This document shows positions 2,147 to 57,019 of a stretch of 64,000 nucleotides of DNA, in pieces. The stretch's first letter is position 1, and the number at the start of each line of letters is the position of its first letter. The position numbers and the translations under genes were made by a program. Below the pieces are notes generated by a model that was not told the origin of the DNA, did not search any database, and was given only the letters and a program-made list of their open reading frames with translations. The stretch is from an uncultured delta proteobacterium (GTDB taxonomy: Bacteria > Desulfobacterota > BSN033 > UBA1163), in the NCBI GenBank assembly GCA_963827685.1, contig CAWHBU010000001.1:352001-416000 (forward strand), written 5' to 3'.

Positions 2147-3469
2147 TTAAAAGCGGGAACCTCCGCCCCCGAAACCACTGCCATGGTTCCCCCCTTGATG
2201 GGACGTGGAAAAACCTTTGCTCCCCACCCCGGATGAACCGAAGTGCTGGCCTCCGCCTCGCGGAGGTGGGCTGAATGACCGGGTTTCACCCGTGGAGGGT
2301 CTTTGAAAGTTCATCCCGTTTAGTCCATTCATCCTGCGGTCGATAGCAGGTGATCTTCTCTGATCACCATTTCGACCGTTGAAACCTGAAGGTCTACTTC
2401 CCCTGCTATAAACTTGCCTTTCAGTACCGCGGTCAGACCTCGAGTAGGCGGAATCTCTATCATTGAGTCCTCTACCTGTTATCGGCATTGAGGGACGGTT
2501 CAAAGCCACTCGATCACGGCTACGCTCGAAGATTGACCGGGCACCCTTCCTGGCCTCCGTAGAATTAAATCCTGTCCCACGAGGTGTATCTTTGCCTCCA
2601 AAAATGCTTCCAGCTTGTCTCCTCGCGGGATCGACGGCAAAGATCCTTCCCGTCCTGTGATCCCTGATGTGATTGGTAATAACACACGCATGCCTATGTA
2701 CAAGGATCACTCTATGAAAATCACGGAGAACAAAGAACCCCGGAAAGAAAAACCCGGAGCACCAAAATGGGCTGGGGACCCAGGCGTACATGTAGTAATA
2801 ATCCAAGGGCGGGGCATAGTAGGTCACTACAGGAGGGCCTTCGGTATCGTAGTAATTATTGATCACAGATGGTTCAGCGTACTGAGGAGTTGTCGGAGAT
2901 GGACTTTCAACGTATCTGTCTGGTACTTCAGCAATGATAGGTAACTGAAGTTCCACCGCAGTCGTCCGGAATACCTTTAGAGCCTCATTCTTTCTCATCG
3001 GCAATTTTTTGGCATCTGCCGCTTCACCCACAGCTTTTTCCAATTCTCCGATGACGTCAGGAGTCACGGGATAATCGGCAATCCATCCGTTTTTGGGTGC
3101 AATACCGGCCGAAGCCAACGTGCTCTCAGCTTCTGCCTCGCTTTTGGCTTGCCCTATCTTAAGCACCTCAGCCAGTTTGATCGCAAAGTCTCCCTCACGG
3201 ATCAGGGTCTGCGCGACCGGGGGTGGTTGCGTTGCCGTCTCCCCAGACTGTGCGCCAGCTGTGATGTTTCCAGGAGGGGGTTGGGAGGGGGTTGAGGGTC
3301 CCATTTTCGGCATGCTTACTTCCTCAACCTTATTGCGATAATCACGAGGGACTTTGCTATAGTCGTCTGTAAAGTTTACTACACCTCCCTCATCAGCCCA
3401 TTTGTAAACAGTAGCCGATGCAGAGGAAGCAATAATAAGTATGCATAAAACAAAAGGAAGTTTCTTCAT
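2147..3469 (-). CDS. Secreted DUF4124-domain protein with a long Arg/Gly/Ser-rich disordered tail
   Basis: Signal peptide MKKLPFVLCILIIASSASA; VYKWADEGGVVNFTD DUF4124 signature; Pro/Tyr-rich middle; low-complexity C-terminus. Confidence 0.75.
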   Translation of the reverse strand: MKKLPFVLCILIIASSASATVYKWADEGGVVNFTDDYSKVPRDYRNKVEEVSMPKMGPSTPSQPPPGNITAGAQSGETATQPPPVAQTLIREGDFAIKLAEVLKIGQAKSEAEAESTLASAGIAPKNGWIADYPVTPDVIGELEKAVGEAADAKKLPMRKNEALKVFRTTAVELQLPIIAEVPDRYVESPSPTTPQYAEPSVINNYYDTEGPPVVTYYAPPLDYYYMYAWVPSPFWCSGFFFPGFFVLRDFHRVILVHRHACVITNHIRDHRTGRIFAVDPARRQAGSIFGGKDTPRGTGFNSTEARKGARSIFERSRDRVALNRPSMPITGRGLNDRDSAYSRSDRGTERQVYSRGSRPSGFNGRNGDQRRSPAIDRRMNGLNGMNFQRPSTGETRSFSPPPRGGGQHFGSSGVGSKGFSTSHQGGNHGSGFGGGGSRF

Positions 3470-8416: not shown

Positions 8417-11400
8417 ATGTCCGGCCAAATTTACAATTGGAAACGATTCTGGTGCCCGAGAACAGGTAACGTTAATCTGTCCGATGGCGGATATCTATAC
8501 AATCCAGATTCAGAATGGGGACACATTTATAATCCCGATGTGGTGTCATTTGAATCCATAACGACTACTCCGTGTTTGGTACTGCTCGGTGAACCTGGAA
8601 TTGGTAAAACTTACACCATTCAAGCAGAACAAAAAACTATCTATCCAAGGATTGAAGAGAAAGGGGATCAGATTATTTGGTTGGATCTACGCTCATTTGG
8701 AAGTGAGGACAGATTGGTTCGAAATCTTTTTGAGAGCACAACCTTTATTTCCTGGGTGAAAGATAAATACCGGCTTCACCTTTTCATGGACAGTTTAGAT
8801 GAATGCCTTTTGAGAATTGATACCTTGGCAGCACTCCTAATCGATGAGTTCAAAAAATATCCTATCGAGCGACTTTACCTCCGCATCGCCTGCCGGACAG
8901 CCGATTGGCCGAACAGTTTAGAGATAGGCTTGGCTCAACTGTGGGGCAAAGATGTGGTAGGAATATATGAGTTGGTGCAGCAACGAATGGCCGTGGGAGC
9001 CCGAATCGCTGCGGTAACTATCTTTGCCAACCGGTATGCTATCTGGACAGGTATAGACCGCGGTGACGTTCCCGAGGAAGATACAACGGTCAAACAGTTG
9101 ATTGGCAAGAGCGAGAGTGTAGATGGGGATGAATTCCAAGTAAGCGAAGCTGCTGTCACGGAAACAGTGGCAACTGGGCTGTTCTCTTCTCGGGGGCCAA
9201 ATCGTCTAGGCTTTGCACATCAGACTTATGCCGAATTTCTTGCTGCCCGGTATTTAGTACAACGGCAAATGAACCTAACCCAAATGATGAGCCTTTTAAC
9301 TCATCCAGGCGATCCTGATAGAAAGTTAGTTCCTCAGCTGCATGAAGCAGCAGCCTGGTTGGCTGGAATGGTACCTGATGTATTTCGAGAAATTACACAG
9401 GTGAATCCTGACGTCTTGTTGCAAAGTGATGTAGCTACCGCCGATTCCAATGATCGAGCAGTACTGGTCAAGAATTTGTTAAACTTATATGATGAAGAGG
9501 TTTTGCTTGATTATAACATCGAAATCCGTAAACGTTACCGAAAACTTGCCCATCCCAGCCTGGCAGACCAGCTTCGACCGTACATTTGTGATAACACTAA
9601 AGGCATTATTGTACGCCGAGTGGCTATTGATATAGCCGAGGCCTGTGAACTCAAAACACTTCAGGATGATCTCGCAAATGTGGCTCTCGATAAGAGCCAG
9701 CCGCTTACGATCCGGGAAAATGCCGCATTAGCCATAAGCCAGATTGGCAGCGATGAGGTAAGAGCAAAACTGAAACCATTGGCCGTGGGTGAAACGGGCG
9801 ACGATCCCGATGATGAATTAAAGGGCTGCGGCCTTCGAGCATTATGGCCAACTCACTTGACAGCAGAAGAATTGTTCGCCTCCCTCTCCCCACCAAAGCG
9901 AGATAATCTATTCGGAGTGTACAAGTCTTTTCTTCATGATCTTACGAAGCATCTCCAACACGTTGATCTATCTATCGCGCTGAAATGGATTGGGAGGCAA
10001 AGGTCTCGGCATGAGCTGCCCGATCCATTTGAAGAAATCATGGATGCCATTATCTTGAAAGCGTGGGAGAATCTCGAATCACCGGGTGTATTAGAGAATT
10101 TTGCCGAAGCAGCTCTCTCACGATTAGAACATGATGATAAAATCGTAGGGGAACGCACAGATTCATCATTTAGAAGCATGTTGGAGAATAATAACGATAA
10201 GCGACGGCGGGTTCTGGACGTTATGTTCTCATTGCTGAATGACCCAGAAAAAGACGCGTTATTATTAGTTTATACGCCGTTGGTGTTAAACAAGGATTTA
10301 TTGTGGATGATAGAGCGCGTTAAATTATCAAAAAGTGAAAAGGTTCAGCGGGCATGGGCTCAGTTAATAACACGAACCTTTGATTTGAAGGAACCAAATC
10401 AATTTGAGGCTATTTTTGAGGCCTGCCAGGATTGTTCAATCCTCGCCGATGCATTTGCATGGCTTCTGAAACCGATTGAGTTAGATTCATCTGAAGCAAA
10501 GAAAATGAAAGCGGACTACCTAAGAAGGCAAGAATTGCAGAGAAGAGCTAAAGATTGGCCGCCTTTAGAACCACCCCCGGCAGAGAGGATAAACGATCTC
10601 TTAGATGAGTGTGAATCAGGTAACTCCGCTGCATGGTGGCGTCTGAACATGGAAATGACACTTGAACCAAATAGCCGCTATTATGGCAGTGACCACGGGT
10701 CAGATTTGACCGTTCTTCCCGGATGGAAAGTAGCAGATGTGAAAACCAGAAGAAGGATCATTGAGGCTGCCAAAAGATACGTATTTGAACAAGATCCGAA
10801 GACGAAAGAGTGGTTAGGCACAAACACCATTTATCGCCCTGCATATGCAGGTTATAGGGCACTGCGACTTCTGCTGCAAGAAGCTCCCGATTTTTTGTCT
10901 GAAATTCCCACCGATACTTGGAAGAATTGGGCACCGATTATCCTTACTTACTTTACAGCAGGCGGAGAAGGGGAGGAAGAAACTCAGCAAAAACTTGTGA
11001 ATGTCGCATATAAACATGCTCCTGAAGAGATCATTCAAACTCTGATGGTTCTGATAGATAAAGACAATACGGAGCATGGTCAAATTTACATTAGTCGCAG
11101 GGTTAAAGGATGTTGGGATGAACGTTTAGCAAATGCTCTGTGCATTAAAGCAAAGGATGATAAATTAAAGCCCGAATCTATGGCCTCTCTGCTTGGTGAT
11201 CTTCTTGACCATAAAGTCTATGAAGCCAGAAAATTTGCGGAGTCGTTAGTTCCTTCTTCACCCCCTTCCGCTGGAGACGAACGATCCAAAGCAATTATCG
11301 CGGCCCGTGTGCTCATGGTGGGTGCCGAAGATTCTGGTTGGTCCGTTGTGTGGCCTGCCGTTCAACAAGATACTGAGTTCGGACGAGAAGTAATTTCAGC

Positions 11401-12349
11401 AGTAGCAAATCGTTATGATCGAAACGCATCGAAGGTGGGGCAACAGCTTCCAGAGGACATTTTGGCAAATTTGTTTGTTTGGCTTGCTCGTCAGTATCCC
11501 TATTCAGAAGATCCCAAACATGAAGGGGCCTACTGCGTTGGGCCCAGAGAAAGCATCGCTTACTTCAGAGATGCCATCTTACAGCATCTAAAACAGTGCG
11601 GCACCCAGAAGGCATGCGAGGCAATTAAGGATATTATCTGCGAACTACCCGACCTTGGGTGGTTGAAGTGGACTCTGCTGGAGGCACAAGCAATTACACG
11701 GCGCCGTACTTGGGTACCTCCTCGCATAGAAGATATCCTTAAGATGGCGAGTAGTCAGCAATTACGCCTGGTTCAAAGCGGAGATGAACTGTTAAATGTA
11801 GTACTGGAATCACTGAAGCGACTAGAGCAGACATTTCGGGGGGAAACCCCGGCTTCAAGAGATGTTTGGGACCAGATTGCGGATAAGGTGTTTCGCCCGA
11901 TCAATGAAAACGAATTCTCAGACTACATAAAAAGACACCTCGATGAAGATCTAAGGCAAAAAGGTATTATTGTTAATCGTGAAGTTCGCATTCACCGGGG
12001 TGAGCGGACAGATATCCACGTTGATGCCGTTGTGCGCGGTGCACATGGGAATCTTTACGACTCCATAACCGTTATTATTGAAGTAAAGGGCTGTTGGAAC
12101 CCAGAACTGCATCAGGCAATGGAAAGACAGCTTCTTAACTGCTATCTGAAGGATACCCACTGCCAGCACGGTTTGTATCTTGTAGGTTGGTTTAATTGCG
12201 AACAATGGGATGACGGAGATTATAGAAAAAAGCAAGCAACAAAACTTTGTAAGGATGACGCACAAGAACAATTGAATGTCCAAGCTACCACATTATCTCG
12301 ACAAGGTAAAACGATCAAAACCTTGCTTATAAATGCGGCACTTCGCTAA
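8417..12349 (+). CDS. NACHT/STAND NTPase with helical-repeat region and C-terminal PD-(D/E)xK nuclease; probable anti-phage protein
   Basis: Walker A LLGEPGIGKT, Walker B LFMDSLDE, sensor IACRTADW, winged-helix FAHQTYAEFLAARYL, C-terminal NREV...RTDIHV...IIEVKG. Confidence 0.8.
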   Translation: MSGQIYNWKRFWCPRTGNVNLSDGGYLYNPDSEWGHIYNPDVVSFESITTTPCLVLLGEPGIGKTYTIQAEQKTIYPRIEEKGDQIIWLDLRSFGSEDRLVRNLFESTTFISWVKDKYRLHLFMDSLDECLLRIDTLAALLIDEFKKYPIERLYLRIACRTADWPNSLEIGLAQLWGKDVVGIYELVQQRMAVGARIAAVTIFANRYAIWTGIDRGDVPEEDTTVKQLIGKSESVDGDEFQVSEAAVTETVATGLFSSRGPNRLGFAHQTYAEFLAARYLVQRQMNLTQMMSLLTHPGDPDRKLVPQLHEAAAWLAGMVPDVFREITQVNPDVLLQSDVATADSNDRAVLVKNLLNLYDEEVLLDYNIEIRKRYRKLAHPSLADQLRPYICDNTKGIIVRRVAIDIAEACELKTLQDDLANVALDKSQPLTIRENAALAISQIGSDEVRAKLKPLAVGETGDDPDDELKGCGLRALWPTHLTAEELFASLSPPKRDNLFGVYKSFLHDLTKHLQHVDLSIALKWIGRQRSRHELPDPFEEIMDAIILKAWENLESPGVLENFAEAALSRLEHDDKIVGERTDSSFRSMLENNNDKRRRVLDVMFSLLNDPEKDALLLVYTPLVLNKDLLWMIERVKLSKSEKVQRAWAQLITRTFDLKEPNQFEAIFEACQDCSILADAFAWLLKPIELDSSEAKKMKADYLRRQELQRRAKDWPPLEPPPAERINDLLDECESGNSAAWWRLNMEMTLEPNSRYYGSDHGSDLTVLPGWKVADVKTRRRIIEAAKRYVFEQDPKTKEWLGTNTIYRPAYAGYRALRLLLQEAPDFLSEIPTDTWKNWAPIILTYFTAGGEGEEETQQKLVNVAYKHAPEEIIQTLMVLIDKDNTEHGQIYISRRVKGCWDERLANALCIKAKDDKLKPESMASLLGDLLDHKVYEARKFAESLVPSSPPSAGDERSKAIIAARVLMVGAEDSGWSVVWPAVQQDTEFGREVISAVANRYDRNASKVGQQLPEDILANLFVWLARQYPYSEDPKHEGAYCVGPRESIAYFRDAILQHLKQCGTQKACEAIKDIICELPDLGWLKWTLLEAQAITRRRTWVPPRIEDILKMASSQQLRLVQSGDELLNVVLESLKRLEQTFRGETPASRDVWDQIADKVFRPINENEFSDYIKRHLDEDLRQKGIIVNREVRIHRGERTDIHVDAVVRGAHGNLYDSITVIIEVKGCWNPELHQAMERQLLNCYLKDTHCQHGLYLVGWFNCEQWDDGDYRKKQATKLCKDDAQEQLNVQATTLSRQGKTIKTLLINAALR

Positions 12350-49498: not shown

Positions 49499-50164
49499 AT
49501 GAAACTTGATAGAGACCTCTATGCCTACCTCTGGCAAAGTGCTTATGAAAATAACTGCAACACTTATTTGATCCGTGGAGAGGTAACGGTTCTCATCGAT
49601 CCTGGTCATTCCCGCCATATTCCCAAACTCTTTCACCAGATGGAAGGAGATGGGGTTTCTCCAGAAGAGGTCGATCTGATCATCGTGACCCATTCTCATC
49701 CAGACCATTTTGAAGGCCTCGAGACCTTTAAGGATATGCCGGTCAAGATTGCGATGAACCACGAGGAAGAGCGCTACCTTATGGAGAATGGGAAACTCCT
49801 CTTTGACATGATGGGGCAAGCGATGCCTGAATTTCGAATCGATTTCTACCTGAAGGAAGGGGAACTCTATTTGGGTAAGGAGACCTTTCATATCTACCGG
49901 ACCCCGGGTCACTCCCCTGGCTCCCTTTCGATCCATTGGCCTGAGAGGATGGTCCTCTTCACGGGCGATCTTGTTTTTCATGGGGGCATTGGGAGAACAG
50001 ACTTTCTGGGGGGCAACTCCGAATTAATAAAGGATAGTATTGAAAGAATGTCCCGTTTGGATACGGAGCTTTTGCTTCCTGGCCATGGAGAGATGGTGGT
50101 GGGGAAGGAGGGAGTGCTTCAGAACTTTGAGTTGATACGACAGAGCTTTTATGCTTATTTATGA
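49499..50164 (+). CDS. MBL-fold metallo-hydrolase
   Basis: LIDPG, THSHPDH, TPGHSPGS, FTGD, PGHG. Confidence 0.92.
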   Translation: MKLDRDLYAYLWQSAYENNCNTYLIRGEVTVLIDPGHSRHIPKLFHQMEGDGVSPEEVDLIIVTHSHPDHFEGLETFKDMPVKIAMNHEEERYLMENGKLLFDMMGQAMPEFRIDFYLKEGELYLGKETFHIYRTPGHSPGSLSIHWPERMVLFTGDLVFHGGIGRTDFLGGNSELIKDSIERMSRLDTELLLPGHGEMVVGKEGVLQNFELIRQSFYAYL

Positions 50165-50701
50165 ACCCCTCAATTGTTCTTTGATTTCCTCTAATTTTAT
50201 CTTGTAAGAGTGATTTAATTTCTCATTTTCTTTTTTCCAGAGTTCGCTCCCTTCGAGTTTCGGCTCCACCGCACTCCCGTGGATCCTTTCTTTCCGCAGG
50301 CCCTCTATCAATTGGAGCCTCGCCTTCTCTTTGACCTTTTCCTTTTCTCCTTGGTATTGGGAATGGAGGTAGCGAAGTTTTTGTTTTACCTTGTGAATAT
50401 TTCTTTGCTCCAATGATTCAATCCCTTTGAGGATCCTTTCCTCTTCATCGTCCAGAGAGAGGGCATCGACCCATTGAGAGAGAAGAATTTCTTTCACGGT
50501 GGTCGCTGTTTTCTTCTCCATTCGCTCGATCTGCTTCAGAATTTGATTCAATGGGAGAAGTCCGTCACGGTACCGGTGAAAGAGGCTGGTTGCTTTCTGC
50601 ATGACCTCCTTTTGCTTCATCTCTTCTTTTTCCTTCTCGGAGATGGCAAACTTTTTTGTTCTCTCCATCGCCAATTCTAAGGTGGATTTAATCTCTCCCA
50701 T
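50159..50701 (-). CDS. Conserved helical hypothetical protein
   Basis: N-terminal MGEIKSTLELAMERT motif and GSAVEP; charged helical composition. Confidence 0.75.
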   Translation of the reverse strand: MGEIKSTLELAMERTKKFAISEKEKEEMKQKEVMQKATSLFHRYRDGLLPLNQILKQIERMEKKTATTVKEILLSQWVDALSLDDEEERILKGIESLEQRNIHKVKQKLRYLHSQYQGEKEKVKEKARLQLIEGLRKERIHGSAVEPKLEGSELWKKENEKLNHSYKIKLEEIKEQLRGS

Positions 50702-51343: not shown

Positions 51344-51881
51344 ATGTTTTTTAAGACTTGTTTTTGCTGGATCATTCTATGGACACTTTTTCTCCCCATT
51401 CCCTATTCCTTTTCAGGAGAAATTTATCGTTGGACGGATGAAAAGGGAACGGTCCATTTAACCGACGATAAATCCAAGGTTCCTGAACGATATGCTGATC
51501 AGGCGGAGAGAATAGAGATCCAGAAAGAAACTTTGGAAGAGGTTGAGAAAACCGGACAACCGGAGGAAAGGCCTGACCGCGTGAAGGATTATTTAGAGAA
51601 GATTGAGAAGAAGATAGAGACGAAGAAAAGCATGGAGAAAAAGATTTCTGAGTTGGAGGAAGATTTGAGATTGTCCGAGGAGAGCTTAAAAAAAATTCAG
51701 GAATATGAAAGAGGAATACCTCTATTATCAGCCATTTAGGGACCCGAACACGGGGAAATGGGTTCTTGTCGCTTCGCCCTTTCATGAAGAGGAGAGGAGG
51801 TTAAAGGCCAAGATTGATGCCATCCGAGCTGAAATAAAGTCGATTCAAGAGAAGCTTTCGAAATTAATGAGGAGCTTATGA
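51344..51881 (+). pseudogene. Secreted DUF4124 + coiled-coil protein, frameshift near 51710
   Basis: IYRWTDEKGTVHLTD; after YE the coiled coil continues in another frame (EEYLYYQPFRDPNTGKW...KLMRSL*) to TGA 51879. Confidence 0.65.
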
Positions 51882-51928: not shown

Positions 51929-51973
51929 TTGACACTATAAACATATTGTATTATATTGTATTTCAAATTGTAT
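51929..51973 (+). promoter_or_regulatory. Sigma70 promoter overlapped by direct repeats
   Basis: TTGACA-17-TATATT; ATATTGTATT twice in tandem (51943-51962) plus a third ATTGTAT at 51967. Confidence 0.65.
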
Positions 51974-51986
51974 AGAGGGGGTTTCT

Positions 51987-52169
51987 TTGGCACAGAAAAA
52001 GGTTGCCCGTACCATTTACATTAAAGACGAACAAATGGAGGCCTTAAAGAGGTTATCTGAGAAGACCAAAGTCCCTCAGTCCGTCTATGTTAGGGAGGCT
52101 TTGGATATGCTCTTGGAAAAATATTCTGAACAACTGAAATTCGAATTTAAAGAGTATTTCAAAGGATAA
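51987..52169 (+). CDS. Ribbon-helix-helix DNA-binding protein, CdbA-like
   Basis: KKVARTIYI strand followed by two helices (EQMEALKRLSEKTKVP, YVREALDMLLEKY); matches the remembered Myxococcus CdbA pattern KK.STTIYI..EQ...LK.L...TKVP...Y.R...D..LEKY. Confidence 0.8.
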   Translation: MAQKKVARTIYIKDEQMEALKRLSEKTKVPQSVYVREALDMLLEKYSEQLKFEFKEYFKG

Positions 52170-52209
52170 CCTCTTTGAAAGCATCTCAGGGCTGGAATGG
52201 AAAGGTAAC

Positions 52210-52962
52210 GTGGATCGTTTCCGATTAAGTTACTTAAAATCAACAGAATTTGAAAGATTGGAGTTTGATGAATCTTTTTCATACAATGATGCCAGAAAAA
52301 CGACAAATCCCCCCTCTCTTTCTCCAGAATTCAATATGCCGGAGACTCTTTCCTCCGAAGCCATTCTAAAACAGGCGAAGGCTGATCTGAAGAATTCCGA
52401 TTCGAAGATAAGAATCTTGGCGATAAAATACTATTTGGAAAAATCTTATCCCTCCATTCCCCTGTCTCTTCTTCAGGAAATTTTATCTGATCGAGACCCG
52501 GATGTCAGAGCCGAAGCGCTCCGTTGCCTTATTAAATTTAGAAGCCCTATCGTTTCCCCTTTATTAAGAAAATATCTTAAGGATAGCGATCCAAGGGTCA
52601 GGATCGCTGTCCTCCGAGGAATGCTCCAATATCAAGAAAAAGTCGACCTAAACATCCTTCTTCAATCTTTGAGCGATGAATCTCCTTGGGTGAGACGGAA
52701 AGTGGCTACCGTATTAGGGTGGACACAAAGAGAGGGGGCCTTACCCATCCTGATAGAATTGTCAAAGGATCAGGACCCAAAGGTAAGAAGGGCAGCTCTT
52801 TTTTCTCTGGTCACCCTTTATCCTGATGAGAGTGAGGATCGTTTGATGGAGGCCATGACCGATTCCGATCCGGGTCTTCGAAAATGGGCGAAAACGACTT
52901 TAGAAAAAATAGCGGCTGGACCGTTGAAAAGAAAAACGGCTTCTCTTACAAAACGAGGTTGA
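52210..52962 (+). CDS. HEAT-repeat protein, in the position of PomY
   Basis: Repeats LSDRDPDVRAEAL, LKDSDPRVRIAVL, LSDESPWVRRKVA, SKDQDPKVRRAAL, MTDSDPGLRKWA. Confidence 0.85.
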   Translation: MDRFRLSYLKSTEFERLEFDESFSYNDARKTTNPPSLSPEFNMPETLSSEAILKQAKADLKNSDSKIRILAIKYYLEKSYPSIPLSLLQEILSDRDPDVRAEALRCLIKFRSPIVSPLLRKYLKDSDPRVRIAVLRGMLQYQEKVDLNILLQSLSDESPWVRRKVATVLGWTQREGALPILIELSKDQDPKVRRAALFSLVTLYPDESEDRLMEAMTDSDPGLRKWAKTTLEKIAAGPLKRKTASLTKRG

Positions 52963-52979
52963 GGACGAAAAAAGGATCC

Positions 52980-53990
52980 ATGGTGACACGCTCATTACCC
53001 CTTATTCAAAGGGCTCAGATTCTCGGAGACGTCATCTACTCGCCGATGGCCTTTGCCAAGCTCCTCGGGATTTCTAAGCACGATCTCCTTGAGAAAGAGG
53101 CGAAAGGAATCCTTCCCCCTGCAAAGAGGGATTCCAATCAGGAACGCTATTATAAGCCAGAGGATGTCAGCAAGTATCGCGCCTACCTGGGACTTCCTTC
53201 CCCCCTCCCATCCATCCGCAAACAGCTCTTTCTCAACTTTAAAGGGGGAACAGGGAAGAGCACGATCTCCGCTTCTTATGGTTTTCGCCTTGCCCAGATG
53301 GGAGCCCGGACATTACTGATCGATTTAGATCCACAAGGCCATCTCACACAATGCCTAGGCCTCAACAGCCAACAGTTCCCCAAAACCCTGTTCCATGCCC
53401 TGATCGAGAAGGAAGAGATGGAAAAGGTCATCGTCAAGACGGATCTCCCCACATTGGATATAATCCCCTCGAACCTGAACCTCTCACCCGTAGAGCTCTC
53501 GCTCTTTTCCATGAATTCAAGAGAGTTCCGATTAAGGAGGCTGATCAGTTCTGTGGAGAAAAACTACGAACTGATTGTGATGGACGCCTCCCCCAGCATC
53601 GGGCTCTTAAACCTGAATGCGATCCTCGCCTCCAACGATCTCATCATCCCCGTCTTGGCCGATTTTCTTTCCTACCATGGGCTCAAGATTCTTTTCGAGA
53701 CCCTCTCCACGATCGAAGAGGATTTTTCATTTGTTTTTGAGAATATCTTCATCTTCCTGAACCGCTACAATGAGTCTCATCGAATCTGCAAACGTTCGAA
53801 GAAGGCGCTGGAGACCCACTATGACAAATACCTCCTCAGCACCGTGATCCGTCAAGATACCAAGATCGCAGAGGCAACGAGTCAAGGAAGCCCGATCTTC
53901 CTGTTCGCCCAATCGTCAAAGGGCGCGGCGGATATCCAGAGCCTGATCGATGAAATATTAGAACCGAAAGGAGCTGATCATGTCAGATGA
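52980..53990 (+). CDS. pomZ: ParA/MinD-family ATPase with N-terminal MerR-like HTH; PomZ-like
   Basis: Deviant Walker A in RKQLFLNFKGGTGKS; IDLDPQGH; PVLADFLSYHGLKILFET; SSKGAADIQ. These segments match Myxococcus PomZ as remembered. Confidence 0.8.
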   Translation: MVTRSLPLIQRAQILGDVIYSPMAFAKLLGISKHDLLEKEAKGILPPAKRDSNQERYYKPEDVSKYRAYLGLPSPLPSIRKQLFLNFKGGTGKSTISASYGFRLAQMGARTLLIDLDPQGHLTQCLGLNSQQFPKTLFHALIEKEEMEKVIVKTDLPTLDIIPSNLNLSPVELSLFSMNSREFRLRRLISSVEKNYELIVMDASPSIGLLNLNAILASNDLIIPVLADFLSYHGLKILFETLSTIEEDFSFVFENIFIFLNRYNESHRICKRSKKALETHYDKYLLSTVIRQDTKIAEATSQGSPIFLFAQSSKGAADIQSLIDEILEPKGADHVR

Positions 53991-54312
53991 ATTCACGAAC
54001 AACGTGGCACAAAAATTCCCCAACACACTGAATAAAGAGCCGATTGAAAGGCCTTGGGATGTTGCGGAAGCCCGTCCCCTCTCTCCTTTGAAGAAACTTG
54101 TGGAAGAATCCAAAAAGGATGATTTGACCGAACGGATCGATACGCTTTATTCTGAGCTTCGTTCCTCTTTGACGGTGCGGTCTGCGCTGGAATTCGATCT
54201 GAAGAAGGCCAATCGAATTCTTGAAGAGGTGAACCGGGTCAAAGCAGAAGTCGAAAAGATTGTCGAGATGTTGAGGGTGATGGATGGATACATGAAAGAA
54301 CGAATCAAGTAA
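53980..54312 (+). CDS. Short coiled-coil protein with a PomX-like N-terminal peptide
   Basis: N-terminus FTNNVAQKFP; heptad-rich C-terminal half; overlaps the end of the ParA gene. Confidence 0.7.
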   Translation: MSDEFTNNVAQKFPNTLNKEPIERPWDVAEARPLSPLKKLVEESKKDDLTERIDTLYSELRSSLTVRSALEFDLKKANRILEEVNRVKAEVEKIVEMLRVMDGYMKERIK

Positions 54313-54386
54313 TCCCCTTCCCTCCCTTTCCCGGAGACGGGGAAAGAAGGAATGAGGGAGGGTCGAATGGCTGAGGAGGGTATAGG

Positions 54387-55202
54387 ATGAAACCAAGAAG
54401 TCAGGTGATGACGGCCGATGGATTCGATACGAATGTTGCCGAAAAGATGCCGAAGATTAGAAAGCTGGAAGAACCCCTTCCCTCACCCCTGGAAATGGAA
54501 CCCCAGTTACTGGAAGAAGATTATCACGAGCCTGTACCAGAAATGAGAATTCCGGAGAAGCAGGTAGAGAGGAAGATGATCTTCGAATCTCCAAAGAAAG
54601 GGATCGAGACCGAACAGAGTCTGGACGTCCTGAAACTGATCGAAGACCTTCATGCTCAGCTCCTTGCCTCGGCCCAGACCAAGAGGGCTCTGGAGATGGA
54701 CCTGGCTTCTTACAAGAAGAGCATCCATCAATTGGCCCAAGATAATCAAGAATTACGTCGCCAGTGGGAAGCCCTGAGCAGAGAGCATCAGAGGCTCAAA
54801 GAGTTGCAGTCCGAATCGATCTATCTTCAAGAGGAGAATGCAGACGCCTTGGAGCGAATCAAAGAATTTCAACAGGAATTGAGAGAGATGAGGGAAGCCT
54901 TGGCCAAAGCCACTCAGGAAAGAGAGGAAGCCTTCGATCGAATTCGTGATCTGGAATCCCAGATGGAACAGAACGAGGTGGTTAAAATCAAAGGAAAGTT
55001 AAAGGAGAGAGAAGCCTCCGTTTTCTCTGAGGAGAACCGGGAACTCCAATCCAAACTGGAGGAGGCCCTCACCCAGAATAGGGATCTGGAGAAAAAGTAC
55101 GAAACCTTGAAAAAATCCTTTAATGAAGTGAGAGAATCTCTCACCTTTTTAAGGGATTCCTGCAAAGTAAATTACTACAACCTATCGGAGACCCCTGAAT
55201 AA
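54387..55202 (+). CDS. Long coiled-coil protein, PomX-like
   Basis: N-terminus FDTNVAEKMPKIRKL, then a Pro/Glu-rich linker and a long uninterrupted coiled coil. Confidence 0.75.
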   Translation: MKPRSQVMTADGFDTNVAEKMPKIRKLEEPLPSPLEMEPQLLEEDYHEPVPEMRIPEKQVERKMIFESPKKGIETEQSLDVLKLIEDLHAQLLASAQTKRALEMDLASYKKSIHQLAQDNQELRRQWEALSREHQRLKELQSESIYLQEENADALERIKEFQQELREMREALAKATQEREEAFDRIRDLESQMEQNEVVKIKGKLKEREASVFSEENRELQSKLEEALTQNRDLEKKYETLKKSFNEVRESLTFLRDSCKVNYYNLSETPE

Positions 55203-55330: not shown

Positions 55331-57019
55331 TTGAAAATTCGATTGATCGATCCAGCCTATGAGCACCCTTACATCAGCCACTCGCAAAAGGTAATTAAGA
55401 ACATCTGGTTTGCCCGCCTCACGCTGACCGCGTTGGCTGCACTCACCCCCTCGAATATCGAAGTGAATATCACGGATGAGAATGTCGAGCCCATTGACTT
55501 TGAAGAGGAGGTGGATCTGGTCGGTGTGACCGGAATGGTGATGCATGCTCCAAGGGCTTACGAGATCGCACAGAGGTTTCGTCAGAGAGAGATCCCGGTC
55601 GTCATGGGCGGACCTCATGCCTCAAGCCTTCCCCTCGAAGCCAAGCAGCATGTGGATGCGGTGGTCATCGGTGAAGCGGAGAATGTCTGGGGAGGATTGA
55701 TTGAAGATTTTAAGAAGGGATGCCTCAAACCTTTCTATCAGGCGGAGTCCTTCTGCTCGATGGAAAGACTCCCCTTTCCGAGGCTTGATCTCCTTCATAA
55801 AGATGCCTACATGACAATCAACTGTGTCCAAACGACCCGGGGTTGTCCTCACCAATGTGATTTTTGTCATGTCACGCATTTTTTTGGAAAGACTTATCGC
55901 TGTCGGCCGGTGGATGAAGTGATTGAAGAGGTGAAGCGGTTAGAAGGGGATTTTCTTGTTTTCATCGATGACAATATCGCTGGAAACCCCCGCTATGCCA
56001 AAGAGCTCTTTACCCGATTGAAGCCCCTCAAAAAGAAATGGGCCAGCCAGGCCAGTATGACCCTGACCCGGGACCCCGAACTCCTGAGACTTGCTGCGGA
56101 GAGCGGATGTGTCTCTTTGTTCATCGGGGTCGAATCCCTCTCTTCGGAAAACTTGAAGGATGTGAATAAAAGCTTTAATCAAGTCCACCAATTTGAGGAA
56201 GCCATGAAAGCCGTTCACGACCACGACATCTTGATCGTGGCCGGGTTCATTTTTGGATTGGATCATGATGATGAAGGGGTCTTTGAAAGGACGCTTCGAT
56301 TTTGTGAACGGAATCGAATTGAATTGCCCAGTTTCTTCATTCTCACCCCCTTACCCGGGACGGCTTTATTCCAAAGGATGGAGTCAGAGGGCAGGCTCCT
56401 GCATAAAGATTGGAGTCAATATAATGGAGCCACAGTTGTTTTCAAGCCGAGATTGATGACCGAAGAGACGCTTCAGCGCGGATTTAATTGGGCATGCAAA
56501 GAGGGATATTCCTGGGGTTCCATCTTTAAAAGGGTTTGCCATCCCCAACAACGATTCGTCACTCGAGTCCTTTCGAATATCGCCTACCGAAGCATTGCGC
56601 AGAGGACACCGGAGGGTTATCTTCCAAGCCTTTCACGAATTTTGCAGAGGATGAATGATACCATCCCTCTCCACAATACTCGGGACTTGATTCAGCGGGT
56701 GGGGGAGAAAATTGCCGAGAGGAAACTTCGGATTGGTCAAAAAGCCGCCGATACGCTCAAACTCTATTCTATTTATAACGAGCGGGTTAGAACCCTGTTC
56801 GTCAGACTCGAGGGATCGATGGATCGGGAGGGAGCGAAAGAGTTGGTAGAGAGGCTTAAAGGAGTTTTACATGTAAAGATCCAGAAAGTCATCCTTGACT
56901 TCAAAGATGTTGGAGCTTTTTCCTCAGAGGCGATCTCCCTGCTCTCCAGAAAAGGTCTTCTTCAGACAGAAGAAGGAAAACTCTGGATCGCTGTGAACCC
57001 ACCGGGCATCCTTGGTTAG
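55331..57019 (+). CDS. B12-binding radical SAM protein with C-terminal STAS-like domain
   Basis: VVMGGPHAS, RGCPHQCDFC, FIDDN, IGVES, LTPLPGT; tail VRLEGSMD...VILDFKDVGAFSSEAISLL. Confidence 0.88.
   Translation: MKIRLIDPAYEHPYISHSQKVIKNIWFARLTLTALAALTPSNIEVNITDENVEPIDFEEEVDLVGVTGMVMHAPRAYEIAQRFRQREIPVVMGGPHASSLPLEAKQHVDAVVIGEAENVWGGLIEDFKKGCLKPFYQAESFCSMERLPFPRLDLLHKDAYMTINCVQTTRGCPHQCDFCHVTHFFGKTYRCRPVDEVIEEVKRLEGDFLVFIDDNIAGNPRYAKELFTRLKPLKKKWASQASMTLTRDPELLRLAAESGCVSLFIGVESLSSENLKDVNKSFNQVHQFEEAMKAVHDHDILIVAGFIFGLDHDDEGVFERTLRFCERNRIELPSFFILTPLPGTALFQRMESEGRLLHKDWSQYNGATVVFKPRLMTEETLQRGFNWACKEGYSWGSIFKRVCHPQQRFVTRVLSNIAYRSIAQRTPEGYLPSLSRILQRMNDTIPLHNTRDLIQRVGEKIAERKLRIGQKAADTLKLYSIYNERVRTLFVRLEGSMDREGAKELVERLKGVLHVKIQKVILDFKDVGAFSSEAISLLSRKGLLQTEEGKLWIAVNPPGILG

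Follow-up and report, generated by a model that had tools for sequence, protein, structure and literature searches.

Organization and conservation of the operon

The window, a stretch of 64,000 nucleotides (C1:352001-416000) from a Thermodesulfobacteriota MAG, carries five co-oriented open reading frames on its + strand, and the ORF listing agrees in this with the initial annotation. They encode a 60-aa RHH protein (51987..52169), a 250-aa HEAT-repeat protein (52210..52962), a ParA-type ATPase (52980..53990), and two coiled-coil proteins, CC1 of 110 aa (53980..54312) and CC2 of 271 aa (54387..55202). A sigma-70-like promoter, TTGACA-17-TATATT (51929..51957, + strand), which matches the consensus at 11 of 12 positions, serves the operon, and its TTGACA box and the sequence downstream are shared, 5' of the RHH gene, by nearly all of 41 orthologous loci. 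The ATPase gene and CC1 overlap by 11 nt, while gaps of 40 nt and 74 nt follow the RHH gene and separate CC1 from CC2, respectively. None of the listed RNA runs contains the stretch.

Searches with blastp located the genes in 46 related loci of other MAGs, always in identical order: RHH in 41, HEAT in 45, ParA in 45, CC1 in 43, and CC2 in 43, with missing genes mostly attributable to contig ends. RHH went undetected in four of the 46 loci despite upstream DNA, and CC1 is missing from L060. Within the family, 24 of 25 genomes contain the ATPase, which was unmatched at E 1e-60 in a near-complete member (G126, 98%). Two further families of the phylum hold operon variants without a visible RHH gene, and a contig-edge fragment from a fourth (f6) comprises the ATPase 3' end, CC1, and CC2. 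The operon is thus conserved and chromosomal in uncultured Thermodesulfobacteriota MAGs, which are labelled Syntrophaceae or deltaproteobacteria.

Since the same order is kept across the 46 related loci, the gene arrangement is not due to chance. It is very unlikely that the five genes are chance neighbours rather than one functional system; the 74-nt and 40-nt gaps could permit separate regulation, but the order is retained in 41-45 of the 46 loci across genera, the core triad reappears in Myxococcota and further families, the reading frames of ATPase and CC1 overlap, and a peptide motif described below is specific to the two downstream genes.

The order HEAT-ATPase-coiled coil is that of PomY-PomZ-PomX, the system of Myxococcus xanthus that positions the division site on the nucleoid. 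This correspondence, proposed in the initial annotation, was borne out in a comparison set of 80 pom loci fetched from metagenomes, in which 53 ORFs directly downstream of pomZ begin with the PomX peptide. The host, however, is an anaerobic Thermodesulfobacteriota MAG, not a myxobacterium. A myxobacterial contig, an unconserved gene order, and an ATPase grouping with ordinary Soj or plasmid ParA had each been named beforehand as findings that would contradict a Pom-type reading, and none of the three was encountered.

The PomZ-like ATPase

The ATPase ORF opens at 52884 and could encode 368 aa, but orthologue ORF lengths and the alignment indicate that translation likely starts at M33 (52980), giving a protein of 336 aa. 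It matches the ParA-type AAA_31/CbiA families of Pfam (E 4e-45) and has a Walker A motif (KGGTGKS) as well as a residue equivalent to the DNA-binding Lys268. Alignment with a myxobacterial PomZ orthologue (P0227) gives 49% identity over 296 residues (E 9e-109), and the PomZ signatures named in the initial annotation, RKQLFLNFKGGTGK, PVL.DFLS.HGLK.LFET, and SKGA.DIQ, are all visible in it. In a search of 1.84 billion cluster representatives, the top matches reach 42-53% identity and 250-310 bits, compared with about 140-160 bits for generic ParA/Soj. One top match, P0003, belongs to the PomZ family: all 119 of its listed relatives possess 19-25 of the 25 residues that section 13 of a preprint (10.1101/2025.12.01.691545) lists for PomZ, with residue numbering as in M. 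xanthus in 94, shifted by one in 12, and shifted by 2-22 in 13. The named relatives are assigned to Myxococcales, Myxococcaceae, Archangium, or Anaeromyxobacter, with one exception labelled only Deltaproteobacteria.

A tree of 72 rows places the ATPase and PomZ in one clade (SH-aLRT 92) and sets apart 27 rows, namely 26 generic ParA/Soj sequences and one top representative, with a branch support of 100; as a quick search supported by SH-aLRT only, it gives the same clade and no strict sister relation. Additionally, of the 22 PomZ pocket residues that are non-universal, the ATPase retains 11, against 4 of 22 in the genome's own Soj and 2-6 of 22 in 10 generic ParA proteins. Database search, pairwise alignment, tree, and pocket residues therefore all group the protein with PomZ and away from Soj and plasmid ParA, and its sequence very probably makes it a true PomZ relative by homology.

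The two proteins also have an N-terminal extension in common, which in the window ATPase holds a complete MerR-type winged helix-turn-helix (53028..53189, + strand), as indicated by Pfam, the structural model, and Foldseek. Residues 53-96 match MerR_1 weakly, just below the cut-off (E 3.7e-4), and the AF2 model of residues 1-85 has a pLDDT of 74.6. Of the 38 PDB matches listed by Foldseek for this N-terminus, 37 are DNA-binding domains of the MerR type, among which HiNmlR (E 1.3e-3) ranks first and SoxR, BmrR, RacA, and BldC come next; the exception is a TniQ-Cascade entry at rank 40. In myxobacterial PomZ the domain is shortened, the alignment showing a gap of about 16 residues at this position. 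An N-terminal DNA-binding domain is likewise found in type Ia ParA and in RepA of repABC plasmids, and partition_RepA is indeed the best NCBIfam match; yet its 106 bits fall far under the family cut-off of 348, and the ATPase differs further from RepA in its PomZ clade, its chromosomal setting, and the absence of a ParB or RepB partner gene.

Coiled-coil proteins sharing the PomX peptide

CC1 and CC2 have only weak coiled-coil family matches in Pfam, but heptad periodicity far above that of shuffled sequences supports coiled coils at residues 47-110 of CC1 and 110-270 of CC2. Both proteins carry the N-terminal ATPase-activating motif of PomX, F-x-x-N-V-x4-P, the activating peptide having been published in PMC7993993. 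In an N-terminal comparison of 28 PomX proteins encoded in pom loci, the columns that never vary are M1, F5, N8, V9, and P14, and all five are present in CC1 in the same register. Across 43 orthologues the CC1 N-terminus, MSDEFTNNVAQKFPNT, hardly varies; a conserved motif, R-P-W-D-V, and the short coiled coil come after it. In CC2, residues 12-23 form the conserved motif G-F-D-x-N-V-A-E-K-M-P-K, which retains the F-x2-N-V-x4-P spacing of PomX and continues with K-I-R-K, whereas in Desulfomonilia-type loci CC2 homologues have the peptide at the extreme N-terminus. The motif regex matched only four of the genome's 30,873 open segments, two of which are the starts of CC1 and CC2.

The initial annotation had regarded the two proteins as PomX paralogs. 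The shared peptide upholds part of this claim, but significant similarity to PomX outside the peptide was not found, either with family HMMs in the pom loci (E 0.037 for CC1; 0.0011 and 0.083 for CC2) or with hhalign (probabilities of 6.7% and 2.8%). With its peptide motif, Glu/Pro-rich linker, and long coiled coil, CC2 is the architectural counterpart of PomX, which is built from peptide, disordered linker, and coiled coil, although Pom has one peptide-bearing coiled-coil protein and the window two. The basic pair K13 and R15, essential in PomX, has no counterpart in CC1, where these positions are F13 and N15; in parallel with this less basic peptide, the acidic PomZ pocket residues E248, E256, and E275 are replaced by K, K, and Q in the window ATPase.

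Complex prediction for two ATPase chains with ATP, Mg, and CC2(1-45) gave a score of 0.43, weakly supporting an interaction, while the best of three controls scored 0.01. Contacts agreed by at least 60% between runs, and partner pLDDT was at least 49. Of 80 solved complexes, 58 pass the mark applied, as do 2 of 110 mismatched pairs, and passing scores of 0.60 or below include 7 of the 80 solved complexes and both passing mismatched pairs; these benchmark counts hold roughly here, where author-made alignments were used and small molecules were included.

The HEAT-repeat protein

The HEAT-repeat protein (HEAT_2, E 9e-44) begins with a conserved peptide, D-R-F-R-L-x-Y-L-K-S, which a variable linker joins to six HEAT repeats; the D[PS]x[VIL]R motif occurs six times in it, at intervals of about 31 residues. 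Six repeats also make up the HEAT region of PomY, and in pom loci the window protein matches the ORF ending just upstream of pomZ. Its earlier identification as PomY holds for this position upstream of the ATPase but not for reciprocal best hits, which fail within this genome: PomY prefers a different HEAT protein (2.9e-7) to that of the window (3.7e-6). The equivalence with PomY is consequently only positional. The description of a HEAT-only counterpart, by comparison, proved accurate, as the protein lacks both the N-terminal coiled coil of PomY and the disordered C-terminal region in which PomY has an activating alpha5 helix and a globular domain. According to PMC10307791, this N-terminal coiled coil is required and sufficient for condensate formation, and the condensate is linked to FtsZ recruitment.

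The RHH gene and its promoter repeats

The RHH protein matches Pfam RHH_3 (E 6e-18) and is 75-98% identical in 41 of the 46 loci; its AF2 model (pLDDT 81.9) has RHH repressors and antitoxins as Foldseek neighbours. Three direct repeats, (C/T)A(T/A)ATTGTAT, spaced by 10 and 12 nt, lie over the -10 box (51942..51973, + strand) and form a proposed RHH operator. The first two copies are kept across genera, and 41 loci, from genera sharing only 46-60% identity in their HEAT proteins, retain both promoter and repeats. In the 5.23-Mb genome, the tandem ATTGTAT-N3-ATTGT[AG]T has a single match, the one at the operon promoter. From this sequence pattern, the RHH protein most likely represses its own promoter through the conserved TATTGTAT repeats. 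CopG, Arc, omega of pSM19035, and ParG of TP228 are similarly small RHH proteins heading their own operons, and the promoters of such autorepressors and partition adaptors are likewise covered by short direct repeats, set roughly one helical turn apart. The fold search lists CopG and ParD among its closest matches, but a toxin gene and a plasmid context are absent here, and operator binding is a prediction.

The initial annotation had likened this protein to CdbA, the RHH nucleoid-associated c-di-GMP receptor of M. xanthus. Both are small and adopt the ribbon-helix-helix fold, but the comparison is not supported: similarity to the CdbA chains 6SBW/6SBX was undetected at E values up to 10 with single sequence or profile, and in the fold search CdbA ranked 14th (E 0.69, 17% identity), behind ParD, ORF56, and CopG. 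CdbA is reported at many genomic sites, whereas the window protein has a single candidate site, the tandem overlapping the promoter. Moreover, the CdbA gene (MXAN_4361) lies far from the pom genes (pomY, MXAN_0634), judged by locus-tag numbers, and the RHH HMM yielded 0 matches in the 80 pom loci. The Desulfomonilia-type loci showed no RHH ORF in ORF lists covering about 1.5 kb on each side. By this distribution, the RHH gene, which heads the window operon unlike that of Pom, is specific to this operon's family and an extra relative to Pom.

ATPases of the ParF type are activated by RHH partners that have basic N-terminal tails, and the operator repeats of these partners also serve as centromeres. 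The operon could accordingly be read as a chromosomal type-Ib-like partition cassette, in which the RHH protein is a centromere-binding ATPase partner like ParG or omega, the TATTGTAT repeats are a small centromere, and the system moves or anchors its own chromosomal locus. We consider this quite unlikely. An RHH gene and direct repeats do head an operon with a ParA-type ATPase, and RHH, at 75-98% identity, is as well conserved as the ATPase, but its distribution does not support a role as ATPase partner: it went undetected in four family loci with upstream DNA, in the Desulfomonilia-type ORF lists (about 1.5 kb on each side), and, by HMM, in the 80 pom loci, all of which nevertheless have the ATPase, the HEAT protein, and a coiled coil with the peptide. 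The ATPase falls in the PomZ clade rather than the small ParF type, and the operon is surrounded by conserved housekeeping genes of the chromosome, with mobile-element genes absent. A canonical Soj-ParB pair is already present elsewhere in the genome, where three ParB family matches were found (C4:378165, C1:104182, and C4:212572); none falls in the window, in agreement with the parB-free neighbourhood noted earlier.

Proposed function and cargo

The operon probably encodes a chromosomal positioning system of the Pom type, which shares its descent with PomY-PomZ-PomX of M. xanthus. By homology to Pom, the ATP-bound ATPase dimer would bind the nucleoid, and CC2 would polymerise into a scaffold, like PomX, whose N-terminal peptide docks on the dimer and triggers ATP hydrolysis, so that ATPase flux carries the assembly toward mid-nucleoid. 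CC1, in which a short coiled coil bears the same peptide, may be a second docking or activating partner, and the HEAT protein would join the scaffold as the HEAT domain of PomY does. Repression by the RHH protein at the repeats over the -10 box would probably hold the component dose steady. If so, the Pom system is not confined to myxobacteria, and this stripped-down relative in an uncultured anaerobic bacterium would offer a simpler version for studying how the place of cell division is marked.

The division site, with its FtsZ ring, is the most likely cargo, a role that homology to Pom makes somewhat likelier than even. The only characterised members of the ATPase clade position the Z ring, and the genome, 94.5% complete, contains FtsZ, whereas a check for minCDE found neither MinC nor MinE, and MinD not above the cut-off. 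M. xanthus is likewise reported to lack MinCDE. It is possible, though less likely, that the same Pom-derived machinery serves a cargo other than the division ring, such as another cytoplasmic assembly with the HEAT protein as its adaptor, or only spaces the scaffold itself on the nucleoid. Missing from the HEAT protein is the PomY coiled coil tied, in PMC10307791, to condensates and FtsZ recruitment, and ParA/MinD ATPases position many kinds of cargo, as stated in PMC11407121. Division genes are likewise absent nearby, the flanks holding csp, S21, an RRM protein, nfnAB, and a radical-SAM gene; against a different cargo, no candidate cargo gene conserved beside the module was found, the downstream radical-SAM gene being missing from many of the related loci.

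As for a division role, MinD is absent from the 20 genomes with the ATPase, which says little because it is rare phylum-wide (30 of 401 sampled genomes). MinD and this ATPase are both missing from about 350 of the 401, a point in favour of a different cargo, and other division-site systems must therefore exist in the phylum.

Operon structure and a PomZ-family ATPase

The operon is very probably homologous to PomXYZ, the system that positions the division site in Myxococcus xanthus. Behind a strong sigma-70-like promoter (51929-51957), it encodes on the forward strand an RHH protein (51987-52169, 60 aa; Pfam RHH_3, E 6e-18), a HEAT protein (52210-52962, 250 aa; Pfam HEAT_2, E 9e-44), a PomZ-like ATPase (52884-53990, 368-aa open reading frame (ORF); Pfam AAA_31/CbiA, E 4e-45) and two coiled-coil proteins, CC1 (53980-54312, 110 aa) and CC2 (54387-55202, 271 aa). 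The heptad periodicity of CC1 residues 47-110 and CC2 residues 110-270 lies far above that of shuffled controls, and the ATPase stop and the CC1 start overlap by 11 nt. The ORFs of ATPase orthologues are mostly 336 or 343 aa long, and these lengths, together with the alignment, support a probable start of the ATPase at M33 (52980).

The ATPase carries a deviant Walker A motif, KGGTGKS, and counterparts of PomZ residues G62, K66 and D90, the Walker A and catalytic positions that give PomZ mutants their names. D90 appears in PMC7993993. According to section 13 of the preprint 10.1101/2025.12.01.691545, 22 PomZ residues contact the PomX peptide or the PomY alpha5 helix or bind DNA, and the PomX and PomY contact residues are kept in PomZ, not in ParA or MinD. 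These 22 residues plus G62, K66 and D90 (Walker A and catalytic) formed a 25-residue test set, and PomZ orthologues were recognised by the residues and numbering in that section rather than by direct use of the M. xanthus sequence.

Searching 1.84 billion representatives with the 336-aa ATPase by HMMER returned top matches of 42-53% identity and 250-310 bits; a PomZ-family representative scores 299 bits, and generic ParA/Soj proteins score about 140-160 bits. In NCBIfam, no curated family covers the ATPase, the best being partition_RepA at 106 bits against a cut-off of 348. One top match, P0003 (312 aa), has 19 of the 25 PomZ residues at exact M. xanthus numbering, and all 119 of its listed relatives have 19-25 of them, two reaching 25. 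Numbering follows the M. xanthus register in 94 of these relatives and is shifted by one residue in 12 and by 2-22 in 13. Where a name is given, it is Myxococcales, Myxococcaceae, Myxococcota, Archangium or Anaeromyxobacter, with a single exception that is called just Deltaproteobacteria. The residue counts and the myxobacterial names therefore identify these proteins as PomZ orthologues.

The initial annotation had proposed that the ParA protein is a relative of PomZ, and the comparisons bear this out: the ATPase is 49% identical to the PomZ orthologue P0227 over 296 residues (E 9e-109), and the PomZ motifs that the annotation had named are all visible in this alignment. Among the 22 non-universal pocket residues, alignment finds 11 kept in the window's ATPase, 12-13 in Desulfomonilia-type proteins, 17-22 in myxobacterial PomZ, 4 in the genome's own Soj and 2-6 in ten generic ParA proteins; the differing positions in the window's ATPase are mostly conservative changes. 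The counterpart of Lys268, which serves non-specific DNA binding in PomZ, is also kept.

A maximum-likelihood tree of 72 rows (quick search, unrooted, long branches flagged) placed the ATPase, as the annotation had expected, in one clade with myxobacterial PomZ (SH-aLRT 92). This clade contains the window's family, two other Thermodesulfobacteriota groups, myxobacterial PomZ and a few metagenomic representatives, one bearing the name Candidatus Riflebacteria, the sole name among the clusters of the ten top representatives. Outside it lie 27 rows, comprising 26 generic ParA/Soj proteins and one top representative, with a branch support of 100. From this tree, the ATPase and PomZ share a clade; a strict sister relation does not follow. 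Judged by these sequence comparisons, the window's ATPase belongs to the PomZ family.

N-terminal MerR-type domain of the ATPase

Pfam reports a weak MerR_1 match at residues 53-96 of the ATPase ORF. The N-terminal extension of the protein aligns with the N-terminus of PomZ through the pattern Y-x-P-x3-A-x-L-L-G, with about 16 additional residues in its interior and about 23 at its start. The predicted fold of residues 1-85 is strand-strand-helix-helix-strand-strand-helix (pLDDT 74.6), and 37 of the 38 rows listed by Foldseek against the PDB are MerR-type winged-HTH proteins, the exception being TniQ-Cascade at rank 40. HiNmlR ranks first (E 1.3e-3), followed by SkgA, SoxR, BmrR, RacA, BldC, MtaN and CueR. 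Most MerR rows have a probability near 1, although no E-value falls below 0.001. Relative to this domain, the N-terminus of PomZ is missing about 16 residues in the region of the wing; the domain is thus complete in the Thermodesulfobacteriota form and eroded in myxobacteria.

CC1 and CC2 carry a PomX-type N-terminal peptide

The sequence of the PomX activating peptide, given in the Methods of PMC7993993, was used to recognise PomX in 80 loci that a scan of JGI metagenome contigs with the PomZ orthologue P0227 had retrieved. In these loci, 53 same-strand ORFs directly 3' of pomZ start with M-K-K-[AS]-F-[DE]-x-N-V, which identifies them as genuine pom loci arranged pomY-pomZ-pomX. Alignment of 28 PomX proteins gave M1, F5, N8, V9 and P14 as the invariant N-terminal columns.

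CC1 and CC2 had been described as two PomX paralogs; the N-terminal peptide motif of PomX was indeed found in both, but HMM and hhalign comparisons gave no significant similarity of the coiled coils to PomX. CC1 starts with M-S-D-E-F-T-N-N-V-A-Q-K-F-P, matching all five invariant PomX positions in the same register, and this stretch is almost invariant among 43 orthologues. CC2 reads G-F-D-T-N-V-A-E-K-M-P-K-I-R-K from residue 12, with the F-N-V-P spacing of PomX from residue 13 and basic residues thereafter. Its Desulfomonilia-type homologues start with M-K-D-G-F-D-K-S-V-A-E-K-M-P-K and match M1, K2, F5, D6, V9 and P14. Across the 30,873 open segments of the genome, a regular expression for the motif matched four places, two of which are the starts of CC1 and CC2; the other two have no plausible start nearby. 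In PomX, K13 and R15 are essential for ATPase activation (PMC7993993); CC1 has no counterpart of either, its residues being F13 and N15 with K12 adjacent, and CC2 has a lysine two residues before the proline and K-I-R-K after it.

Ahead of its heptad region, CC2 has a Glu/Pro-rich stretch (residues 27-78), thus sharing the linker and C-terminal coiled-coil build of PomX, and by analogy it may form a scaffold. Searched against the pom loci, the CC1 family HMM reached an E of 0.037, for an opposite-strand ORF, and the CC2 family HMM reached 0.0011 and 0.083, only in two deep-branching loci. Against the PomX profile, the two proteins gave non-significant hhalign probabilities, 6.7% and 2.8%. These weak alignments are co-linear, with the same two motifs, coiled-coil start and middle, so a remote homology of the coiled coils to PomX is possible. 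In the ESM Atlas, CC2 retrieved its own Thermodesulfobacteriota clusters and then generic eukaryotic coiled coils only. CC1 and CC2 appear PomX-like at their N-termini and are at most candidate members of the PomX family.

Three pocket residues of PomZ, E248, E256 and E275, are K, K and Q in the window's ATPase, and the window peptide is less basic than that of PomX; the two differences would fit co-variation of peptide and pocket. A complex of two ATPase chains with two ATP, two Mg and CC2 residues 1-45 was predicted with a score of 0.43, the best of three controls scoring 0.01; runs gave 0.43, 0.43 and 0.52, with contact agreement of at least 60% and partner pLDDT of at least 49. In calibration, 58 of 80 solved complexes pass the mark for such scores, as do 2 of 110 mismatched pairs. 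Scores up to 0.60, where the ATPase-CC2 value of 0.43 falls, comprise only 7 of the 80 solved complexes and both passing mismatches, and the calibration is only rough for this pair, which used custom alignments and included small molecules. The prediction weakly suggests that the N-terminus of CC2 binds the ATP-bound ATPase dimer.

The HEAT protein compared with PomY

Six D[PS]x[VIL]R motifs spaced about 31 residues apart mark six repeats in the HEAT protein; the HEAT domain of PomY has six to seven. By phmmer, the protein matches the ORF ending just 5' of pomZ in the pom loci (best 12 of 61 matches, E about 1e-10 to 1e-14), and the HEAT family HMM matches the same ORF at about 1e-14 to 1e-16 (best 8 of 64). 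At its start, this ORF has the conserved N-terminus and the coiled coil of PomY. The proposed equivalence of the order HEAT-ATPase-coiled coil with PomY-PomZ-PomX is borne out by the same order in the metagenome pom loci. Identity of the HEAT protein with PomY by reciprocal best hit failed, as the PomY of metagenome locus L077 slightly prefers another HEAT protein of the genome (2.9e-7 versus 3.7e-6).

The HEAT protein has only about 55 residues before the repeats, with no heptad signal there, and ends about 15 residues past the last repeat. It lacks both the N-terminal coiled coil of PomY (residues 5-106) and the disordered C-terminal part that bears the alpha5 activating helix and a globular domain. 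As described in PMC10307791, the coiled coil of PomY is required and sufficient for condensate formation, and only condensate-forming PomY variants co-localise with constrictions. Since the HEAT protein is without this coiled coil, the FtsZ-recruiting step is not simply transferable to the window's system. These comparisons make the HEAT protein a counterpart of PomY in position and fold class only.

The RHH protein and its upstream repeats

The RHH protein had been likened to CdbA, an RHH protein of M. xanthus, and this likeness was not upheld. Neither its sequence nor a 16-row profile matched 6SBW or 6SBX, the PDB codes given for CdbA/CdbB in the CdbA paper, at E up to 10, and no similarity to any PDB chain was found with the single sequence or the profile. 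Foldseek with the RHH model (pLDDT 81.9) returned only RHH proteins as neighbours, all with E above 0.1; ParD, ORF56, YiiF and CopG came first, and CdbA ranked 14th (E 0.69, 17% identity). The RHH HMM had no match in the 80 pom loci. The link to CdbA is rejected on these sequence, profile and fold searches.

Three direct repeats of the form (C/T)A(T/A)ATTGTAT lie upstream of the TTG start of the RHH gene and extend over the -10 box. Nearly all of 41 orthologous loci, from genera with HEAT proteins of only 46-60% identity, keep the TTGACA box and the first two of these repeats, and the tandem repeat occurs once in the 5.23-Mb genome. The repeat is the likely site of the RHH protein, which is more likely than not the autorepressor of the operon and would act locally there rather than as a nucleoid-wide protein. 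CdbA is a c-di-GMP-binding protein that acts at many sites of the chromosome, and the single copy of the likely RHH site is an indirect contrast to this. As a minor alternative to autorepression from this single conserved site, the RHH protein could be a third partner of the ATPase, like ParG or omega.

Conservation and distribution of the module

A pattern scan with one genome per species yielded 46 related loci, none from a myxobacterium, consistent with the non-myxobacterial host claimed in the initial annotation. They are uncultured MAGs, whose labels read Thermodesulfobacteriota, Syntrophaceae, delta proteobacterium or Deltaproteobacteria except for two Syntrophorhabdus sp. and one unclassified bacterium. 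The expected conservation of gene order was also found: blastp detected the RHH protein in 41 of the 46 loci, the HEAT protein and the ATPase in 45 each, and CC1 and CC2 in 43 each, always in the same order. Most missing genes correspond to contig ends; the RHH gene was undetected despite upstream DNA in four loci (L034, L054, L057 and L061), and CC1 was absent from L060 by blastp. Identities to the window's proteins are 75-94% for the ATPase, 75-98% for RHH, 65-94% for CC1, 46-90% for HEAT and 51-87% for CC2. None of the family members found has an annotation more specific than "AAA family ATPase", "ParA family protein" or "hypothetical protein".

In the coded genome set, the ATPase was found at E <= 1e-150 in 24 of the 25 genomes of the window's family, the exception being 70% complete, and in none of 13 genomes from two sister families of the same class. 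A sample of 401 genomes from the phylum gave 20 with an ATPase match at E <= 1e-60. These include the window's genome and 10 of the 11 sampled from its family, one genome each of two other families (f6, ATPase identity 66%; f10, 68%) and six genomes of a further family (f45, 56-60%), whose close relatives carry NCBI names of Desulfomonilia. The f45 loci and the f10 locus L158 have the order HEAT protein (218-234 aa), ATPase (319-344 aa) and peptide-bearing coiled coil (238-276 aa), and no RHH ORF is evident within 1.5 kb on either side. The f6 locus L165, a contig-edge fragment, retains only the 3' end of the ATPase gene, a 106-aa CC1 homologue and a CC2 homologue in a 294-aa ORF.

The f45 loci with downstream DNA encode an extra small coiled-coil protein of 77-82 aa, located 3' of the CC2 homologue (L160:3310-3552, L162:3306-3545, and on the reverse strand L159:174-422 and L164:383-616). 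It starts with M-D-[PS]-[DEN]-T-[SK]-K-K-V, is without the activating peptide and may correspond to the coiled-coil portion of CC1.

A MerR-ParA protein of genome G400 (family f59, 39% identity), the last of the 20 matches, was rejected as Pom-like, having neither a HEAT gene nor a peptide-bearing neighbour. In its locus (L166, G400:C250:10586-14536), the MerR-domain ParA is followed by a 125-aa protein starting with M-S-K-N-K-P-D-Y-T-K-F-M-K-R-P; this may be a further orphan ParA, paired with a basic N-terminal peptide of its own.

Metagenome loci L137-L146 form a deep-branching, high-GC pom-like set whose ATPases are 58-66% identical to P0227. Six of them give the top scores of all pom loci against the window's ATPase (339-352 bits), and in two the downstream ORF has G-F-D-[AT]-N-V, which resembles the CC2 motif. 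These loci may bridge the myxobacterial and Thermodesulfobacteriota forms.

Cellular function and proposed mechanism

The genome (8% contamination) encodes FtsZ, and at 94.5% completeness it yielded no MinC, no MinE and no MinD above the cut-off. A canonical Soj-ParB pair lies on another contig than the operon. MinD occurs in 30 of the 401 phylum genomes and in none of the 20 with the ATPase; because MinD is so rare, this absence carries little weight, and mutual exclusion of ATPase and MinD across the phylum is uninformative at such a base rate. The GC skew of the operon's contig was too weak to place the locus relative to origin or terminus. A flux of nucleoid-bound ATPase, activated by peptides, is the probable mechanism of the system, and the division site is slightly favoured as its cargo.

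A further reading, rather doubtful when all its features are taken together, is that the operon encodes a minimal Pom machine near the ancestral form, without a PomY condensate. Two paralogous coiled-coil proteins would each deliver a PomX-type peptide to the ATPase, so that the "two activators" logic of Myxococcus would be achieved by a different route, with CC1 in place of the activating helix of PomY. The charges of peptide and pocket would have changed together, E248K, E256K and E275Q accompanying the less basic peptide. Through the intact MerR-type domain, the ATPase would gain a second grip on DNA, one that might be sequence-specific, and a dedicated RHH autorepressor would fix the dose such that one cluster forms per cell. 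On this reading, the marking of division sites by nucleoid-surfing ParA clusters would be ancient and shared by several phyla, not an invention of myxobacteria.

PomXYZ is placed in myxobacteria in PMC7993993, section 5 of 10.1101/2025.12.01.691545 describes the Pom system as conserved in Myxobacteria, and Gemmatimonadota seem to be without PomZ according to PMC11271474. Among the papers covered, a full-text literature search that included PomZ in Desulfobacterota returned no placement of PomXYZ outside myxobacteria. If the homology to Pom is real, a simpler module in anaerobic Thermodesulfobacteriota would make Pom older and more widespread than described. It would also suggest how lineages without MinCDE divide at the right place. 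The module would further provide a natural experiment on the essential parts of Pom: it does without the condensate-forming coiled coil and the activating tail that PomY has, and it carries the activating peptide twice.

Genomic neighbourhood

The remaining genes of the window are ordinary chromosomal ones, encoding beta-oxidation enzymes, a branched-chain amino-acid ABC transporter, a hybrid-cluster protein, glycerol kinase and NfnAB-like proteins, and no mobile-element genes were seen in the window. An origin of the operon from a plasmid or mobile element is rejected because its flanking genes are conserved housekeeping and metabolic genes.

Two window proteins contain DUF4124 (51344-51739, forward strand; 2147-3469, reverse strand). 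The smaller, at 51344-51739, has a helical tail rich in lysine and glutamate and is encoded just ahead of the operon; its gene occupies this place in only 3 of the 46 related loci and is thus probably outside the module. Directly 3' of CC2, the forward-strand gene at 55331-57019 encodes a B12-binding radical-SAM protein whose C-terminus weakly matches STAS (E 2.4e-4, narrowly short of the Pfam cut-off); found there in 28 of the 46 loci, it is a variable neighbour. A large unexplained protein is encoded by a 1310-aa ORF at 8417-12349 (forward strand), with no Pfam family at E <= 1e-6. The reverse-strand gene at 50159-50701 encodes a protein of 180 aa that is rich in lysine and glutamate and matches nothing in Pfam or NCBIfam, and it adjoins a cold-shock gene in an arrangement kept in 25 of the 46 related loci.
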